From a virus (Duplodnaviria > Heunggongvirae > Uroviricota > Caudoviricetes), in IMG/VR virus record IMGVR_UViG_2721755660_000011: 52,258 bases of DNA. One strand, given 5' to 3'. The notes beneath the pieces are model-generated. The model was not told the origin of the DNA. It saw nothing but the letters and a program-made list of their open reading frames with translations, and did no database searches. A program made the position numbers and the translations under genes. Of the stretch, positions 32,975 through 41,739 are shown piece by piece; within the stretch, counting starts at the first letter, position 1; the number at the start of each line of letters is the position of its first letter.

Positions 32975-33051
32975 TGGCGCGTTGTACTGGATTCGAACCA
33001 GTGACCGATTGCTTAGAAGGCAATTGCTCTGTCCGACTGAGCTAACAACGC
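32975..33051 (-). tRNA. tRNA-Arg (anticodon UCU), phage-encoded (argO/argN-like)
   Basis: Reverse complement GCGTTGTTAGCTCAGTCGGACAGAGCAATTGCCTTCTAAGCAATCGGTCACTGGTTCGAATCCAGTACAACGCGCCA folds as canonical cloverleaf; anticodon loop CTTCTAA. Confidence 0.8.
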
Positions 33052-33064
33052 ATGATGCAGATAA

Positions 33065-33145
33065 TGGACCGCCATCGAGGACTCGAACCCCGCACCAACA
33101 ACCCTGTTATCGTGTCGTCTGCTCTTCCTGATGAGCTAATGGCGG
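33065..33145 (-). tRNA. tRNA-like gene with noncanonical anticodon arm (possible argN-like or pseudo-tRNA)
   Basis: Reverse complement has a good acceptor stem (CCGCCAT / ATGGCGG), D-arm (GCTC...GAGC), T-arm (CGGGG TTCGAGT CCTCG) and CCA, but I could not fold a standard 5 bp / 7 nt anticodon arm by hand; 81 nt. Confidence 0.4.
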
Positions 33146-33152
33146 TATGTTA

Positions 33153-33228
33153 TGGTGGCCCTTGCTGGATTTGAACCAGCGACCTGGCGATTATGAGTCG
33201 CTCGCTCTCACCACTGAGCTAAAGGGCC
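33153..33228 (-). tRNA. tRNA-Ile2-like (anticodon CAU), phage-encoded (ileZ-like)
   Basis: Reverse complement GGCCCTTTAGCTCAGTGGTGAGAGCGAGCGACTCATAATCGCCAGGTCGCTGGTTCAAATCCAGCAAGGGCCACCA closely resembles E. coli ileX-type tRNA; anticodon loop CTCATAA. Confidence 0.8.
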
Positions 33229-33268
33229 GGGCGCAGGATAATAACGGTACATAACTAATTCTGCAATA

Positions 33269-34327
33269 TCATCCGTTCTGACTGACTAAATCCTGAACTT
33301 CCTTGACCGTCTGCTCAAAACGCTCAGTCTCCAGCTCAACGCCAATTGCACGACGTCCCAGCGCCATCGCTGCTTTGACCGTCGAACCCGACCCCATGAA
33401 AAAATCTGCAACCAGATCTCCCGGACGACTGCTTGCGCTGATTATCTGCTGCAACATTTCTGCCGGTTTTTCGCACGGATGTTTCCCGGGATAGTACTGC
33501 ACCGGTTTATGCATCCACACATCGGTGTACGGCACCTGCACAGTCACACCGAAATACCGCCGCAAATTTTTATATTCTCTCAGCAGTTCCGTATACTGCC
33601 GGTTCAGTTCACTGTATGTGCTGACCAGCTGGTGGTGTGGCTGCTCCAGTTCACCGCGCTGATGTTTTTCTGCTGCAACACGCGCAAACAACGCCTGCAA
33701 TTTGTTGTAATCAGCTTCGTTCGGTAACTGCCACTGACTGGTACCAAACCAGTGCGAAGCCATGTTTTTCTTTCCGGTGGCTTCCGCTATCTGTTTTGAC
33801 GTTATTCCCAGTTCGGCACGAGCATCCCTGAAATACGATATCAGCGGTGCCATTATGTGCTGTTTGAGTTCCCTTTCTTTTGCCGCATAGCCGTCACTTT
33901 TGCCGCGATATGGCCCCTGGTAATGTTCAGCAAACAGAACGCGCTCTGTGGCAGGAAAATATGCGCGCAGACTTTCTTTATTACACCCATTCCAACGTCC
34001 AGACGGCTTCGCCCAGATGATATGGTTAAGCACGTTGAAACGTTCACGCATCATGATCTCAATATCAGATGCCAGGCGATGCCCACAGAACAGGTAAAGG
34101 CTTCCGGCAGGTTTCAACACCCGCCAGAACTGGGCCAGACAGTGGTCCAGCCACTTAAGATAATCTTCGTCCCCTTTCCACTGATTGTCCCAACCGTTGG
34201 GTTTCACCTTGAAGTAAGGCGGATCGGTAACAATCAGGTCAATGGAATCATCAGGCAGGGACTGAATAAAATGCAGGCAATCAGCGTTGATTAAATCAAC
34301 ACTGTTTATTTTTACAGTATTTTTCAT
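33269..34327 (-). CDS. DNA methyltransferase (amino-MTase, likely N6-adenine or N4-cytosine), apparently orphan
   Basis: 352 aa; motif IV DPPY near N-terminus (LIVTDPPYF) and motif I FxGxG near C-terminus (DFFMGSGSTVKAA); no adjacent restriction endonuclease ORF. Confidence 0.8.
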   Translation of the reverse strand: MKNTVKINSVDLINADCLHFIQSLPDDSIDLIVTDPPYFKVKPNGWDNQWKGDEDYLKWLDHCLAQFWRVLKPAGSLYLFCGHRLASDIEIMMRERFNVLNHIIWAKPSGRWNGCNKESLRAYFPATERVLFAEHYQGPYRGKSDGYAAKERELKQHIMAPLISYFRDARAELGITSKQIAEATGKKNMASHWFGTSQWQLPNEADYNKLQALFARVAAEKHQRGELEQPHHQLVSTYSELNRQYTELLREYKNLRRYFGVTVQVPYTDVWMHKPVQYYPGKHPCEKPAEMLQQIISASSRPGDLVADFFMGSGSTVKAAMALGRRAIGVELETERFEQTVKEVQDLVSQNG

Positions 34328-34477
34328 GGATCAGTAAGCGTAACTCTGGTAGGCTCACTCTGCTTTTGCGCTAAAGCAGTGGGCCGTGGTTCGCTTGTGA
34401 CCAGTAAGCATGAGCGAATGGCTGGCAGGTGCTACCAACACCCACCAGCCGCCCATTTTCACAGCAGGAAACCGCCA

Positions 34478-34765
34478 TTACTGGCAGCGTCTGAATTTAT
34501 TCCCGTACCCGCCGTTATCCTTCGCCAGACCCGCCAGAACTAACTGAGTCAGTATTAACTGGCACCGGACTTCGCTTACTCCGGTAGTTCTCGTCATCAT
34601 GCGTGGCGTTACCCACTTGTCAGCAGGTAAGAAATGAAGGACTGCGGCGGCGGTTTCTGTCATATCTTGCTGTTTTAGCATGTTTTTTCCCTTCTGGTTA
34701 ACATGACATACCAATAACTCTTGTCTAAAAAGCCAGCAAGATAAAAAGTCAGTATTCACGACCAC
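34478..34765 (-). CDS. Hypothetical protein, first ORF downstream of putative late terminator
   Basis: 95 aa ORF; real start may be the internal Met at about 34681 (MLKQQDMTETAAAV...). Confidence 0.35.
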   Translation of the reverse strand: MVVNTDFLSCWLFRQELLVCHVNQKGKNMLKQQDMTETAAAVLHFLPADKWVTPRMMTRTTGVSEVRCQLILTQLVLAGLAKDNGGYGNKFRRCQ

Positions 34766-34801
34766 CAGCGTGTTTACTGTACTGCACCAAGTTTACAGGT
34801 A

Positions 34802-34820
34802 CAAAAAAACCGCTCAGCGG
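34802..34820 (-). terminator. Candidate tR'-like terminator (short GC hairpin followed by T-run on minus strand)
   Basis: Minus-strand sequence CCGCTGAGCGG followed by seven to eight T; located between Q region and the late genes, as tR' is in lambda. Stem is only 4 bp, so weak. Confidence 0.35.
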
Positions 34821-34950
34821 CGGGTTTAAGTTGTGTGGCGAAGTAACCACTCTTAACAGCATATTTGATTTTTTACGATTGTAAACGGTTGATTATTCAT
34901 CTCCAATAAAAATAATTGTGTAGGTATGCCCTTAACAATGGATAAGAAAC

Positions 34951-35397
34951 ATGAATAAAATGACTGTATTATTACTTAGCGCAACTATCATTTCAGGTTG
35001 TACTTCTTCCGTACCATTGATAAAGAAAACTCAATCAGGAAAACCTGAGGGGGTTTATCAAAATACGACAAAAGATAAAGTCAAAGATGCCCTTGTGAAT
35101 TACTGCAATAGTAGAGGGTTGATAATTTACAACGCGGATAACAGCAGTGTTATATGTGGTAAAGAACTGGAAGGCGGGTCTGCTGTTTTTGGACAAATGT
35201 TAATCGGCAATGCCTATTCAACAACCCCGGTATCAAAAGTCAGATTTACTATCGCTCAAGTTAATAACGATACAAAAGTGTGGGCCGATATGTGGATGGA
35301 AACTCAAATGGCAATGGGGCAAGTACAACAAATGGCTATAACAGACAACGCAAGCAAAAACACTATCCAACAACGTCTTGATGAATTAAAACCTTAA
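34951..35397 (+). CDS. Lipoprotein (moron), opposite strand to flanking phage genes
   Basis: 148 aa; signal peptide with lipobox IISGC (MNKMTVLLLSATIISGCTSS); AT-rich flanks; sits between Q and the late operon on the opposite strand. Confidence 0.6.
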   Translation: MNKMTVLLLSATIISGCTSSVPLIKKTQSGKPEGVYQNTTKDKVKDALVNYCNSRGLIIYNADNSSVICGKELEGGSAVFGQMLIGNAYSTTPVSKVRFTIAQVNNDTKVWADMWMETQMAMGQVQQMAITDNASKNTIQQRLDELKP

Positions 35398-35417
35398 GTA
35401 AATTAATTAAATAAAAT

Positions 35418-35440
35418 GGGGAGAAATAAATCGACTCCCC
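35418..35440. terminator. Hairpin between convergent lipoprotein gene and Q (likely terminator for minus-strand early transcript)
   Basis: ggggag ... ctcccc inverted repeat with 11 nt loop; T-rich on the minus-strand downstream side. Confidence 0.45.
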
Positions 35441-35482
35441 ACACATTAAACTGATTCAATTACCCCCTCAATAAGAGGTCTT

Positions 35483-35848
35483 CTAACGATCCATCTCTAG
35501 CTCAATTTCTAACATCATTAACATGCCATCAACTACACCTTCAGCCTTTTGCAATAAACGCCCAACCCAGCAATCAGAACGCCCATGTTTACGGGCAAGC
35601 GCCATAAACGTCATACCACCTACATAATAATCCACTAATAAATCGTGCAAATCGCTGTTGTTCTTTTTCAGGCGAGCCATGCACCCACAAATGATCATCG
35701 CGTCATCGTCACAACATTGCGGGCGGGATTTTACTTTTGAAGGGATTAGTCCTTTAAATCCTGCAGCAATAGACGACCAGGTGACATCCTCGTGATTATT
35801 TGCCACCCATGCCCCCCAACGTTCAAGAACCATTTGAATATCACGCAT
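35483..35848 (-). CDS. Q: Late gene antiterminator Q (QuuD-like)
   Basis: [74 protein letters not shown] matches my recollection of DLP12 QuuD; start placed at internal Met of ORF 35483..35863. Confidence 0.8.
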
Positions 35849-37395: not shown

Positions 37396-38307
37396 TCAGT
37401 GAACGGTATCGAGCAGCTTTAACAGCTCAGGGAATCGGGATTCGAAGAAATGCGGCTGCGTCTCGCGCGGATTTGCAGGACTGGTGATGTTCTTGCCGAA
37501 CATGCAGCCTTTCGCCGTCAGCGACCAGAATTTTTTGATGTTGTTAATCGCGGTACGGCTGTATCGTTCGCGTTGTTCAACGATCCCCAGCTTCGCCATC
37601 TGGTGATATGCCTGATTAGCCGTCAGGCGGATACCATACTGCTTCAGCAGTGCACTCAGCGACAGCGTAGGGCGGCTTGAACCATCTGGCGCATCAGCAG
37701 GTGCATCAATGGCATAGATCGGCATAAGTTCAGGAAGACCTGCTACCTTTGATAATTTCTGGTATGCACCAAGTTTCGAGGAGTTTGACAGATTTAGAGT
37801 CTTTGCTGCTGATTCAAGCAGAATGACCCCGGATTTAATTTTGTCGGATGTGGTTTCTTCTGGTGATGAATTATGAAGCGCATCAAAAGTACGTATCACT
37901 TTTAAGCTGAATGCCGGGCTGATCCACATTGCATATGCATAGACCAGCTCTTTACAGACATACGTCCCACCATTGCGCCCCTGAATGGTGATGACAGGAA
38001 TACTACGGGAATCTCCCGTAGTTTCTTCTTCCAGTAATTCCACAAGAGCCTTCGTTTCAGGACGACGCATAAACTCGTGAACTTCCAGCGAACGGGAGGA
38101 GCGATTCTCACCAGCGGCAAGAAGAGCAGCTTTCTGAAGGTCGTTAAGACAGTAGTTAGATTCAAAGTACTGGCGCACAGAAACGCCATCAATTACAAGC
38201 AACTGATTCATTGGTTTCTCCACAAATTTCGGGACTGCACTCCCTTTTCGTTGATGCAAGATGAACTTACTGCGATTTTTAATAGTTATCAAGGATACAC
38301 TGTTCAT
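37396..38307 (-). CDS. KilA-N domain-containing protein (putative antirepressor-like)
   Basis: 303 aa; segment NQLLVIDGVSVRQYFESNYCLNDLQKAALLAAGE resembles KilA-N domains; start could be internal Met at about 38211. Confidence 0.5.
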   Translation of the reverse strand: MNSVSLITIKNRSKFILHQRKGSAVPKFVEKPMNQLLVIDGVSVRQYFESNYCLNDLQKAALLAAGENRSSRSLEVHEFMRRPETKALVELLEEETTGDSRSIPVITIQGRNGGTYVCKELVYAYAMWISPAFSLKVIRTFDALHNSSPEETTSDKIKSGVILLESAAKTLNLSNSSKLGAYQKLSKVAGLPELMPIYAIDAPADAPDGSSRPTLSLSALLKQYGIRLTANQAYHQMAKLGIVEQRERYSRTAINNIKKFWSLTAKGCMFGKNITSPANPRETQPHFFESRFPELLKLLDTVH

Positions 38308-38480
38308 AAATACAGTATCTTTAACGAGGTAATACCCAAATTTAGGGTGTTGCTCAATTCCGTTACCGAGTTGCTAATTTGCAACTCGCTTTTTCGTACT
38401 TACTGATAGTGATCTCGACCTTACCTTCCGGGATAACCGGTCCCCACTCCACCAGCATTCTTTTCACCTGTCTGTCGTCT

Positions 38481-38490
38481 TCCCACACCC
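38481..38490. repeat. IS186 target site duplication, left copy (tcccacaccc)
   Basis: Identical 10 bp tcccacaccc flanks both ends of the IS186 element. Confidence 0.75.
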
Positions 38491-39829
38491 CATAAGCGCT
38501 AACTTAAGGGTTGAACCATCTGAAGAATGCGACGCCTCGGTGCCTCGTTAAGACGATGCCTCGCGTTCTTCAATTGCGTTTTGTAGGCTGTCAGGGATAC
38601 TGTCCCACGAATGGCCACCTGTAAGCTCCAGATGACCATTTTTGTTATTCTCCACAACGAGTTAGTTCTTCTTTTCGGATCCGGCACTTCTGGGGGGGAA
38701 ATCCAGCGATGGCTGGATTATGTCGTCAATTAAAAATGCGGCGAGTAGATTAGCAAATATCCACGCTTTCGCGAGTTCAGGTTCCTTTGCACGCAAAGCA
38801 TCCAGGTGCAGCAAACTTTTGAGCCGCTTAAAAGCCAGTTCAATTTGCCATCGCAGACGGTAACAATCAGCCACTTGCTCTGCTGAATATTCATCTTCCG
38901 GTAATGATGTTAGCAATAGCACATGGCCCGCTGCTTCCAGCGTTTCCGCCTGAACTACTCGTCCTTTTCGACGATTCTCGCTGAGCAGTCGGGTTTTACT
39001 GATTAATGCTTTTTCGGGAGGAAGTGATACGGCAATGAGACGTGCCGGAAAGGGAGCTCCGGCTTTTTTATTACCTGAATTGCCTATCATTACAGTGGTT
39101 TCACCGTTCTTACCGCAATCCAGCCCGCGCAGAAAACCCATCATGTCAAAGCGCATTCCTTCTGCAGTTAACCAGCGCAATCCTCGCCAGTGAACCCGGA
39201 CGATATAATCAGCTTCTCCAAAAGCAAGTGAGCGGATACATTCGGGACGCGAACCGAATCCCCGGTCAGCAATGCGTATCTCGTCTGCCGTTTGCGCAAA
39301 TCGGTCCAGCCGTTCAGCGTCTCTGCTGTCGGTTAGCTCAAAATCAGTGAACTGACAGGTATGAGGATCATATCCCATATGTAGTCGCCATTCAGCGCTG
39401 CCGCCCCCGGGCGCACTGATTGCTGTTCCATCGACAAGACGCAATCTCTTTCCGCTTGTACAACCCGTAACTGCGGCGCGTACAGCAAGTGTTTGTGCGG
39501 CAAGTATGCCAAACCAGTCGGCGGCATTCCGCAGCCGCTTCAGGAGAGCCACGTCAGATAATGTTGCAACGTCATGGAGCTGAGCCCATGCAGTGACTTC
39601 ACGTAATGACATCCCCCCGGGGCCGTAAGCCAGCCCCAGACGTAGCAGAGTTGCAGCATCACGAATTTCGCGGCGGCGGGTTAGAGCCCCGGCATTACGT
39701 GCCGAAGTATCCAGTTCTTCGGGCTTACCAATATGGGCCAGAATTGCTGACCAGTTATCGTGAGAGTAATTCATCGGCACGTTAAATCATATCAGGCGTA
39801 ATACCACAACCCTTAAGTTAGCGCTTATG
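38491..39829 (-). mobile_element. IS186 insertion sequence
   Basis: Terminal inverted repeats cataagcgctaacttaagggttg (38491..38513) and its reverse complement (39808..39829); 1339 bp; single transposase ORF; flanked by 10 bp direct repeat. Confidence 0.9.
38662..39780 (-). CDS. IS186 (IS4-family) transposase
   Basis: 372 aa ORF (MNYSHDNWSAILAHIGKPEELDTSARNAGALTRRREIRDAATLLRLGLAYG...) matches my recollection of IS186 transposase. Confidence 0.9.
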   Translation of the reverse strand: MPMNYSHDNWSAILAHIGKPEELDTSARNAGALTRRREIRDAATLLRLGLAYGPGGMSLREVTAWAQLHDVATLSDVALLKRLRNAADWFGILAAQTLAVRAAVTGCTSGKRLRLVDGTAISAPGGGSAEWRLHMGYDPHTCQFTDFELTDSRDAERLDRFAQTADEIRIADRGFGSRPECIRSLAFGEADYIVRVHWRGLRWLTAEGMRFDMMGFLRGLDCGKNGETTVMIGNSGNKKAGAPFPARLIAVSLPPEKALISKTRLLSENRRKGRVVQAETLEAAGHVLLLTSLPEDEYSAEQVADCYRLRWQIELAFKRLKSLLHLDALRAKEPELAKAWIFANLLAAFLIDDIIQPSLDFPPRSAGSEKKN

Positions 39830-39839
39830 TCCCACACCC
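39830..39839. repeat. IS186 target site duplication, right copy (tcccacaccc)
   Basis: See left copy. Confidence 0.75.
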
Positions 39840-40103
39840 CCGCGTGGGTCAGGGCGTCAAACAGCGCCTTGTTATAGTTGTCCAGATCGCGGATCCGGTT
39901 ATCCGGAGGAAACAACACGATCTCCACTGAAGCAGGTGCCGACGTTGGTTTCGGCAGACGACGTAACTGCTCAACTATTGCTGCGCACGCCGCGCTCTGG
40001 AATTTTCGCCCCGCCGCGCTTATCAGGCTCTTACCAGCAAACGCCCCTTTGTTGGGGTGTCGCCAGTACGTGTTCACGCTGGGCGGGAAAGGCAGTATTA
40101 GCT

Positions 40104-40463
40104 TCATACTTTCAGGCCCCTCTCATGTAACCAGTGGGTTGCACGCAGCCTGGCGTTTTCCTCACCGGCAAGCAGTGAGCGGATAATCCCGACCGCCTCG
40201 CTGTCGTCGTCCTTCACCGCGGTATGAAGCGTTATCCCCCGGGCCACACCACGCTTTATCGTGATGACGCCTTTTTTCTCCAGTGCGCGAAGATGCTCCA
40301 CCGCTGCATTCACTGAACGGTATCCCAGCATGGTTGCCACCTCCTGATTGGTTGGCGGGAAGCCACGTTCTTTCTGGTAAGAAATCAGCATATCCAGCAC
40401 CTGCTGCTGGCATTGAGTTAACGTCGTCATTAAGCCCCCACGTAATTGCCTGACAGATACCAC
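40104..40463 (-). CDS. LexA-N-terminal-like winged-helix DNA-binding protein
   Basis: 119 aa; segment QQQVLDMLISYQKERGFPPTNQEVATMLGYRSVNAAVEHLRALEKKGVI resembles the LexA DNA-binding domain; no peptidase domain. Confidence 0.5.
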   Translation of the reverse strand: MVSVRQLRGGLMTTLTQCQQQVLDMLISYQKERGFPPTNQEVATMLGYRSVNAAVEHLRALEKKGVITIKRGVARGITLHTAVKDDDSEAVGIIRSLLAGEENARLRATHWLHERGLKV

Positions 40464-40918
40464 TCTTCACCCGATGCAGCGCGCTTGCTGCTTTTCCGTA
40501 AGCACCGCTCACGACGCGCCAGAAAATTGTTTCGTTCTGGCTTGGAGTGGCTTTCACGGAATGCCGCCATCCACACGGTTGCAGCACGACGAAATAAGCC
40601 CCTGGACTCCAGTTCTTCCGCCTGGCGGGTCAGGCACAAAATCACCCGTGGATCGTTAGTGCCGACATAGAAATTGCGCACAGGTCTGGTTTCACGAACT
40701 GGTTGTGGTTCCGGCTCCTGCGCTCTCTCAGTCAGGCGTGGGAAATGTCTGCGTGTATCTCCTTCACAACGGTGAGCCACACGCCCACTCTGACGTAACT
40801 TGCTTGCTGACTGCAGAACGCGCTGTCGTGAGTAACCAGCAAAAGCATCCGCAATGTCTCCTGAAGTACACCCCGGATGGGCTTCAATGAATTTCTGAAC
40901 TTCATTCAAAAGACTCAT
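40430..40918 (-). CDS. Hypothetical regulator with PerC-like C-terminal motif
   Basis: 162 aa; C-terminal segment AEELESRGLFRRAATVWMAAF resembles the conserved PerC/Pch-family motif as I recall it; N-terminal winged-helix-like region. Low-confidence family call. Confidence 0.35.
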   Translation of the reverse strand: MSLLNEVQKFIEAHPGCTSGDIADAFAGYSRQRVLQSASKLRQSGRVAHRCEGDTRRHFPRLTERAQEPEPQPVRETRPVRNFYVGTNDPRVILCLTRQAEELESRGLFRRAATVWMAAFRESHSKPERNNFLARRERCLRKSSKRAASGEEWYLSGNYVGA

Positions 40919-41739
40919 AATCCCCCCCTGAATCCTGCCGGGATCTGGCTGTAGTCCACGTTGTCGTAACTGGCTTTGAAGTACGGGTCCTCGCGTCTGG
41001 CTGCAGATACCGCAGGAACTTCCCAGGATTCTTCGAAATGACGATCCGGACCAAAGAACGTGACAGCCTGTTTCACAAATTGTGTGCCGCTGTTACCCAT
41101 CGCAGATACCCAGCCCGCGTAGCGTTTCACACCTTCCAGCATGGTTTCGGGGTTTACCCCCTCATTCAAACGGGCTTTCCAGGCTTTGAAGGCTGCAGAT
41201 TTTGAATTGCCACCAGCACGTTTGGGATAGGCCAGCCATGCCTGCTCAAACTCCGGAGAGTATTCCGGTCGGTTTGAACGAACTCGCACAGACTCATCAG
41301 CAGATGCACCAACAGCTATTGGTTCATTGACTGGTTCTTTGACTGGTTCAAAAGAGTGACTGGTTCTGGGTGAATCTCCTGCACTACCCCCTGGTGCAAC
41401 TCCTGCACTACCTGGTGAATTTGCTGCACCAGATAGTGAATTATTTGCACTACCCCCTAGTGAATCTCCTGCACCATCAAGATGAAGGAGATAGATATTA
41501 CTTGAGTTACCTTTTTCACCTTTCCGGGTGACTTTTTTTACCAGCCCAGACTCACAAAGGGCCGCAATATGATTCATCACAGAACGTTTGCTAATCTCGC
41601 ACTGGTCAGCAATATGCTGGTAGCTGGGCCAGCACTCCCCCTGATCGCTGGCATTATCAGCCAGCTTGATCAGAACCAGTTTTCGCAATGGATTACCCAC
41701 TCGAATTTTCATCGCTTTAACCATCAGCTCCATACTCAT
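40915..41739 (-). CDS. Replication initiator (O-like, HTH N-terminus, internal repeat array)
   Basis: 274 aa; N-terminal HTH; central Gly/Ser/Ala-rich linker encoded by DNA repeats; position downstream of cro/cII-like genes matches lambda O. Confidence 0.6.
   Translation of the reverse strand: MSMELMVKAMKIRVGNPLRKLVLIKLADNASDQGECWPSYQHIADQCEISKRSVMNHIAALCESGLVKKVTRKGEKGNSSNIYLLHLDGAGDSLGGSANNSLSGAANSPGSAGVAPGGSAGDSPRTSHSFEPVKEPVNEPIAVGASADESVRVRSNRPEYSPEFEQAWLAYPKRAGGNSKSAAFKAWKARLNEGVNPETMLEGVKRYAGWVSAMGNSGTQFVKQAVTFFGPDRHFEESWEVPAVSAARREDPYFKASYDNVDYSQIPAGFRGGL
41369..41476. repeat. Iteron-like direct repeats inside replication initiator gene (putative ori)
   Basis: Four to five copies of a roughly 20-24 bp motif (tgcactacc...gtgaat...) e.g. 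gtgaatctcctgcac at 41369 and 41459, ctgcactacc repeated three times. Confidence 0.55.

Follow-up and report, generated by a model that had tools for sequence, protein, structure and literature searches.

Do two small regulator genes in the early region of a prophage act on genes of the bacterial host, or do they serve the lytic cycle of the phage itself? This question is raised by the interval 40104–40918 of the IMG/VR virus record IMGVR_UViG_2721755660_000011 (Caudoviricetes), a stretch of 52,258 nucleotides, which is called the window here. The original prediction had seen in this interval a pair of small putative regulators of the nin region, one with a C-terminal PerC motif and one resembling the N-terminus of LexA, which could act on host genes in the way that Pch proteins act on the LEE (locus of enterocyte effacement). 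The interval is made up of two intact and already annotated early genes of a lambda-like (lambdoid) Escherichia coli prophage. They form two adjoining open reading frames (ORFs) on the minus strand, which in the ORF list fill exactly this interval. The anatomy of both encoded proteins is near certain. Functionally, both would be regulators acting in lytic development and not in the lysogen, and the probability of this reading as a whole is estimated at roughly 40%. The two genes and the domains of the first one are the following.

40430–40918, minus strand: yfdN-type gene, 162 amino acids (aa), "PerC family transcriptional regulator" (ORF; Pfam PerC; PHROG 1324; RefSeq name)
40739–40918, minus strand: yfdN codons 1–60, predicted MarR/ArsR-like winged helix-turn-helix with three helices and a beta-hairpin wing (AlphaFold)
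40472–40651, minus strand: yfdN codons 90–149, PerC/ANR-like three-helix core with the motif AEELESRGLFRRAATVW (AlphaFold; Pfam PerC)
40104–40430, minus strand: LexA-like gene, 108 aa, truncated LexA homologue (Pfam LexA_DNA_bind; RefSeq WP_000210170.1, "LexA family protein")

For the LexA-like gene, the ORF list gives 119 aa from a GTG. The actual start is the ATG at 40430, resulting in 108 aa; this start follows RefSeq WP_000210170.1, which is annotated in a 100% identical prophage.

The gene at 40430–40918 is the orthologue of yfdN of E. coli K-12 (b2357), since 157 of the 162 residues of its product are identical (97%). In K-12, yfdN is part of the cryptic prophage CPS-53, and there as well as in SfV (orf40) and mEp460 (gp44) the gene occupies the identical slot right after the replication gene. 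The RefSeq name of the K-12 protein is also identical, whereas its RefSeq start lies two codons further upstream (164 aa), so that the ORF in the window begins at the third codon. Homologues with 66–98% identity are found in Salmonella, Citrobacter and Hafnia, and the protein matches PHROG 1324, "transcriptional activator", with an E-value of 5e-78.

The AlphaFold model of YfdN has a mean predicted local distance difference test (pLDDT) score of 76 and displays a winged helix (residues 1–60), a disordered linker of about 25 residues (63–84) and three helices (90–149). Within the N-terminal domain, helices 3–13, 19–25 and 31–44 and strands 47–52 and 55–60 are predicted with a pLDDT of 82–91, and the MarR-type BilQ model of NCBIfam is matched by 6 of 16 YfdN family members (best E-value 9e-5). 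This winged helix is a probable DNA-binding domain as judged from the model. The helices of the C-terminal domain (90–105, 109–122 and 126–149) reach a pLDDT of about 90. For this domain, no Foldseek match was obtained in the PDB or in BFVD, as those searches returned matches of the N-terminal winged helix only, and no sequence relative of YfdN is present in the PDB. A likeness of the N-terminal domain to lambda Ren, which is encoded in the equivalent slot, was considered and rejected: the match to PHROG 142 is weak (E-value 0.005), BLASTP gave nothing and hhalign returned a probability of 0.5%.

The C-terminal domain carries the PerC motif that had been noticed before. Residues 98–149 match Pfam PerC (PF06069) with 34 bits, the gathering cut-off being 22.6 (E-value 3.7e-08). 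This match covers only positions 5–56 of the 90 profile positions and leaves the last third of the profile without a counterpart. In an hhalign comparison, the YfdN family aligns over 57 columns with a bona fide PerC protein of 95 aa, which itself scores 114.6 bits in Pfam, with a probability of 97.8%, an E-value of 1e-12 and 39% identity. Judged from these sequence comparisons, the C-terminal domain of YfdN is a genuine PerC core. The three-helix core with AEELE-x-GL-x-RRAA-x-W is common to YfdN, PerC of enteropathogenic E. coli and PchA-C of enterohaemorrhagic E. coli. In contrast, PerC and Pch are single-domain proteins of approximately 90–105 aa; YfdN, with 162 aa and an added N-terminal winged helix and linker, is not a single-domain protein matching the whole profile. 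Pch itself has no recognizable DNA-binding domain and acts by de-repressing H-NS silencing (PMC4764244).

The same three helices also resemble a second family. The ANR_neg_reg model of NCBIfam (NF033650) cross-matches below its cut-off in 16 of 16 YfdN family members and also in two undisputed PerC proteins, all of them in the range of E-values from 1e-4 to 5e-6 and 22–26 bits against a cut-off of 32. The ANR signature residues A10, E14, A22, W26 and A29 are located on three helices (PMC4983702), and these positions coincide with A100, E104, A112, W116 and A119 of YfdN, which are invariant in the YfdN family. Since the models cross-match and the signature residues fall on invariant residues of YfdN, PerC and ANR look, at the level of sequence, like one homologous three-helix superfamily. 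The predicted three-helix layout and the spacing of A, E, A, W and A are shared by YfdN and the ANR family (Aar, Rnr). However, ANR proteins comprise 39–80 aa and function exclusively through contacts with other proteins, namely AraC-family activators and H-NS, whereas YfdN is larger and has a probable DNA-binding domain. The PerC/ANR cross-match on one three-helix core was also seen at L009 2501–2788, and in another locus (L008 3007–3222) a PerC gene and an AraC/YdeO-like gene form a divergent pair, an arrangement that ANR genes share.

The second protein was described by the original prediction as a LexA-N-terminal-like DNA-binding protein lacking the peptidase domain, which is confirmed. 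It matches the whole Pfam profile LexA_DNA_bind (PF01726) with 68.7 bits against a cut-off of 23.7 (E-value 3.7e-19) and is 43% identical to residues 1–90 of E. coli LexA. The full-length model TIGR00498 (lexA) gives 70.8 bits, which is under its cut-off of 110.95, and only profile positions 1–91 are covered. A Pfam search with PerC and LexA_DNA_bind had been proposed as a check, with a missing PerC match counting against the prediction; both profiles matched. When superposed on DNA-bound LexA (crystal structure 3jso), the AlphaFold model deviates by an rmsd of 1.0 Å over 68 residues (Foldseek, E-value 1e-06, 50% identity). The protein comprises a winged helix (1–68) that is joined by a short linker to a tail of two helices specific to the family (76–103, with AlphaFold helices 76–87 and 93–103); this tail is conserved among family members down to approximately 40% identity. 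The chain stops at residue 108; it has no S24 peptidase/dimerisation domain, and no Ser-Lys dyad is found. In contrast, E. coli LexA (TIGR00498; PDB 3jso, 1lea), whose N-terminal winged helix is 43–51% identical to the LexA-like protein, has the S24 peptidase and an Ala-Gly cleavage site; the LexA-like family, with its added tail, has no peptidase domain and no conserved Ala-Gly site. As a candidate for a retained cleavage site, the "AGE" within LLAGEE was considered, which aligns with Ala84-Gly85 of LexA. The relatives have, among others, LLANEEN, LLVGEEN and MVERESD at this position and the candidate was rejected; since "AGE" is not conserved in the family, cleavage is not expected.

In LexA, the residues contacting DNA are Ser39, Asn41, Ala42, Glu44 and Glu45 (PMC13416735). 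Four of these five are kept in the LexA-like protein (Ser39, Asn41, Ala42 and Glu45), and so is the Arg64-Gly65-Ile66 wing. Across the family, whose compared members are 38–66% identical to each other, Ser39 never varies, and most members retain Asn41, Ala42 and Glu45. The pairwise identity within the family is 0.54–0.56 for helix 3 and the wing, 0.43–0.45 for helices 1–2 and 0.34 for the tail. Compared to E. coli LexA, the identity of helix 3 is 0.60, thus this helix is as similar to LexA as family members are to one another. The only characterized analogue found so far is gp6 of the Bacillus tectivirus GIL01, a truncated LexA with 44% identity to the LexA of its host (PMC6182141). It belongs to another type of phage and another host, whereas the enterobacterial LexA-like family has the extra tail and is found here in a Q-controlled lambdoid genome. 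Besides, a protein library at 50% identity contains proteins with tandem double LexA DNA-binding domains in one chain (P0252, P0253, P0269, P0272, P0273 and P0276), which would not need a dimerisation domain.

The setting of the two genes within the prophage, which is integrated at a tRNA-Thr gene (thrW) beside proA, is given by the following neighbouring features.

40915–41739, minus strand: replication initiation gene (Pfam HTH_36/DnaD_N-like; PHROG 270), directly upstream of yfdN
39787–40107, minus strand: 5' part of rusA, Holliday-junction resolvase (Pfam RusA; alignment with intact mEp460 RusA)
about 38486–39828, minus strand: IS4-family insertion sequence (IS), IS421/IS186-like, splitting rusA (ORF list; RefSeq annotation of the identical prophage)
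38662–39780, minus strand: transposase of this IS
37396–38211: KilA-N gene
35483–35848: Q
33269–34327, minus strand: N6_N4 DNA methylase gene, downstream of Q

On the minus strand, the right operon starts with a YdaS-type cro, a CP76/YmfL-type cII, Rha/Ash, an ORF of 74 aa and the replication initiator, which are followed by yfdN and the LexA-like gene, the split rusA, the KilA-N gene, an ORF of 171 aa, DUF968/HNH and Q. The DNA methylase gene, two tRNAs and the lysis genes lie 3' of Q, and the product of the divergent repressor gene carries an S24 peptidase domain. Since both genes are situated between the replication gene and Q, the earlier label "nin region" is fair. On the sequence, stop and start codons overlap at each junction, namely ATGA between the replication gene and yfdN, TAATG between yfdN and the LexA-like gene and ATGA between the LexA-like gene and rusA. 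No promoter-like or terminator-like site is present on the minus strand within 40104–41739. Both genes thus seem to share a transcript, and to be coupled in translation, with their upstream neighbour, the replication gene, and with rusA on the downstream side; they should be delayed-early lytic genes, because no such site separates them from the operon. The order of the genes is likewise found in the functional phages mEp460 and mEp390.

In comparison to mEp460 RusA, rusA is interrupted after about codon 93 and its 3' remnant is located at 38363–38491; the ends of the IS are approximate, as they were derived from this RusA alignment. Another element, an IS66, is also carried by the prophage. 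The IS within rusA may block read-through from pR to Q, which would leave the region of the SOS box in front of the KilA-N gene, described below, as the only possible route to Q. The late region 32975–35848 resembles that of Shiga toxin (Stx) phages, with Q, a small ORF, the DNA methylase gene, tRNA-Met/Ile(cat) and tRNA-Arg(tct), and TerB and DUF3927 genes occupy the place where Stx phages have stx.

Both genes are very common. The 1-kb stretch that contains them was matched in 2687 of 5426 complete E. coli genomes, in nearly all cases with 95–100% identity, and also in 50 phage records, including mEp460, SfV (orf40/orf42), SfII, SfIV, cdtI as well as Stx2c and Stx2a phages. In those genomes, the NCBI Prokaryotic Genome Annotation Pipeline (PGAP) names the products "PerC family transcriptional regulator" (often yfdN) and "LexA family transcriptional regulator/protein". 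In most relatives, a Dam methylase gene of 654 nucleotides lies exactly between yfdN and the LexA-like gene (mEp460, L002 5428–6081). This cassette is precisely absent in the window and in SfIV, and due to this absence yfdN abuts the LexA-like gene here, with a clean TAATG overlap at 40430. The LexA-like gene is kept just upstream of rusA without yfdN in mEp390, L012 and L010; the RusA of L010 belongs to a different subfamily, yet the LexA-like gene still adjoins it. In the Hafnia phage yong2, a short PerC gene is found in the yfdN slot and the LexA-like gene is located in the left arm. Because yfdN is missing in mEp390, L012 and L010 and the LexA-like gene is placed elsewhere in yong2, the two genes are independent modules and not an obligate pair or system. 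The short yong2 gene (L007 32012–32278), directly after the replication gene, encodes a protein of 88 aa with a marginal PerC match (22.1 bits, cut-off 22.6), which suggests that it is the slot rather than the winged helix that is conserved. Cargo related to SOS and equipped with an SOS box of its own is also present in other phages with a LexA-like gene, namely DinI-like and UmuD-like genes in mEp390 (L006 20396–21308) and a phage recA in yong2 (L007 20049–21164).

Within the window, the LexA operator pattern CTGT-N8-ACAG occurs at 5 sites compared to 0.75 expected (0/100 and 0/200 simulations), and two of these sites are canonical SOS boxes.

38298–38317: canonical LexA (SOS) box CACTGTTCATAAATACAGTA, 22.0 bits, about 90 bp upstream of the KilA-N gene
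34300–34319: canonical LexA (SOS) box CACTGTTTATTTTTACAGTA, in codons 3–9 of the N6_N4 DNA methylase gene

With a weight matrix, the two boxes score 22–23 bits, the median of known boxes being 21 bits. A box at the equivalent position of the methylase gene is present in mEp460 and in yong2, where the DNA identity is 73%. At least one box of at least 19 bits was found in 7 of 7 loci with a LexA-like gene, and for EPP-1 and L010 a box is found immediately upstream of the unit of transcription to which this gene belongs. No such boxes were found in lambda, the right arm of HK97 and P22 (102 kb together). Other spacings of CTGT and ACAG gave no convincing sites in the window; the N10 spacing has 5 sites compared to 0.71 expected, but these are GC-rich, lie in coding sequence and have no extended motif in common. 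Very strong SOS boxes (25–27 bits) were also seen inside the cI-type S24 repressor genes of mEp460 (L002 9867–9886) and L012 (836–855), about 165–210 nucleotides from the gene starts.

Within the proposed lytic roles, the truncated LexA would dimerise through its tail and occupy operators of the LexA type. Because it is not expected to be cleavable, it would re-close SOS boxes once the LexA of the host has been destroyed during induction. Its targets would be the two boxes of the prophage, one preceding the KilA-N gene and one where the methylase gene begins; SOS promoters of the host would probably be bound as well. YfdN, in turn, would sit on DNA by its winged helix, and its PerC/ANR-like helices would contact regulators of the nucleoid or of the AraC type, with a modulated silencing of AT-rich phage DNA or other horizontally acquired DNA as the outcome. 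This is proposed by analogy with Pch proteins, which relieve silencing by H-NS, and with ANR proteins, whose binding partners are H-NS and AraC-family activators.

Several points weigh against these roles. LexA dimerises via its C-terminal domain, the one that is missing here; dimerisation by the tail is a guess, and the spacing of the half-sites could differ from N8. Of the contact residues, Glu44 is replaced by Val in the protein and is variable in the family. The analogue gp6 binds its own, different palindrome and activates the late promoter P3 rather than repressing it (PMC6182141). The association of SOS boxes with the LexA-like gene is suggestive only, as 7 loci were compared to 3 controls, a small sample that is related by descent; the weight matrix is an ad hoc one made from E. 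coli operator sequences. The boxes would be explained by host LexA alone, and the one in the methylase gene lies within coding sequence and could be conserved for the sake of the protein. For YfdN, the Foldseek matches of the N-terminal domain are weak and generic winged-helix matches (SmtB/ArsR, MarR, BlaI/MecI) with E-values of at least 0.003, and the ANR_neg_reg model gives 22.3 bits against the cut-off of 32 (E-value 8.5e-5). The roles of both proteins are inferred. A literature search found no functional study of YfdN or of enterobacterial truncated LexA proteins; the only use made of yfdN there was to delete it so that a ler::lacZ assay would run against a clean background (PMC5931665).

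The strongest competitor of an SOS-box binder, although doubtful, is a phage-specific factor with its own operator, either an activator or a repressor. The precedent of gp6, with its different palindrome and its activation of P3, would fit to such a factor, Glu44 is not conserved, and the new tail implies a new dimer geometry. Furthermore, the LexA-like protein (42–47% identity) diverges faster than the adjacent RusA (73–85%), as specificity-determining regulators often do. However, late transcription is carried out here by the Q antiterminator, the recognition helix is the most conserved part of the protein and LexA-like across hosts, and no convincing sites exist at other CTGT/ACAG spacings, the N10 sites being GC-rich and coding. 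The position of the gene directly upstream of rusA, with overlapping or nearly overlapping codons in mEp460, mEp390, L012 and also in L010 with its different RusA subfamily, could instead point to an accessory of recombination or replication, e.g., a DNA-binding partner or regulator of RusA, and weak matches to DnaD_N and to replication-initiator winged helices would be in line with this. RusA works alone as a resolvase, though, which counts against an accessory. In yong2 the LexA-like gene is found far from rusA and in EPP-1 after a Rha gene, HK97 has rusA and no LexA-like gene, and conservation is concentrated on the helix that reads the sequence, so that this role is improbable. That the genes have lost their function and are left over from a prophage in decay can nearly be dismissed. 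The two IS elements and the location of K-12 yfdN in a cryptic prophage would agree with decay, but both ORFs are intact and 95–100% conserved in plaque-forming or inducible phages (mEp460, SfV, SfIV and Stx2c phages), and family members at 40–70% identity keep the length, the domain layout and the key residues. A role in anti-phage defence was looked for with PADLOC, which gave nothing meaningful.

The remaining alternative is the one originally proposed, in which genes of the host or of a pathogenicity island are the main targets and the PerC protein activates LEE/ler like PchA-C. YfdN does belong to the PerC family by Pfam, group 1 Pch proteins are encoded on prophages, rise upon SOS or prophage induction and activate ler (PMC5931665), and the non-group-1 PchE changes the expression of csgD and flagella when over-expressed (PMC6265319, PMC7369912). 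Nevertheless, the protein is of the YfdN type and 97% identical to K-12 YfdN rather than a Pch; the match is confined to the first 56 of the 90 PerC profile positions, and the winged helix is extra. Activation of LEE1 has been shown for group 1 Pch and PerC only; for the non-group-1 Pch proteins of O157, PchD and PchE, hardly any activation of ler is seen (PMC5931665). An assignment of YfdN as pchD or pchE was rejected, since the N-termini differ and the window lacks any match to the cloning primers of that study (PMC5931665). About every second complete E. coli genome carries the genes, the LEE-negative K-12 among them, and they lie within the early-right lytic operon with overlapping stop and start codons and no promoter-like site of their own. 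Cargo genes expressed in the lysogen (morons) are usually not arranged inside a lytic operon with overlapping codons. The two genes are also not a functional pair, as yfdN is missing in mEp390, L010 and L012, where the LexA-like gene still adjoins rusA, and no link between the LexA-like gene and virulence is found. The YfdN type, its frequency in E. coli genomes, the LEE-negative K-12 included, and the lytic-operon setting leave the idea of Pch-like regulators of host genes without support. Control of host genes (LEE) by the two proteins is thus unsupported and this alternative unlikely; effects on host genes during induction are possible.

What do these genes mean for the biology of lambdoid phages? 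Both were already known, with RefSeq names that match those of the original prediction in thousands of genomes, so that the finding is accurate but commonplace. Its weight as a discovery is small, because the genes are already annotated and very common and both products are 97–100% identical to database proteins. New in detail are the domain anatomy of YfdN and its cross-match with ANR, the LexA-like recognition helix and wing combined with a tail of its own, and the two SOS boxes. Their value lies in two cheaply testable hypotheses on very common and little-studied prophage proteins.

In its widest form, which is a speculative extension and somewhat unlikely, the proposal is that RecA-proof LexA mimics are widespread in enterobacterial lambdoid phages and would re-occupy SOS operators after induction, shutting the host SOS regulon, SOS-box genes of the phage and perhaps LexA-controlled antirepressors of rival prophages. 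In the same form, YfdN would show PerC and ANR to be one three-helix superfamily engaging complexes of H-NS or of the AraC type, and in YfdN a winged helix would provide the tether to DNA.

If the proposed lytic roles hold true, lambdoid phages would carry an uncleavable LexA that resets SOS-controlled promoters in lytic growth, which would be relevant to the Stx2c and Stx2a phages carrying the gene. YfdN, which is present in K-12 itself, would then be a DNA-tethered modulator of nucleoid silencing of the PerC/ANR type.

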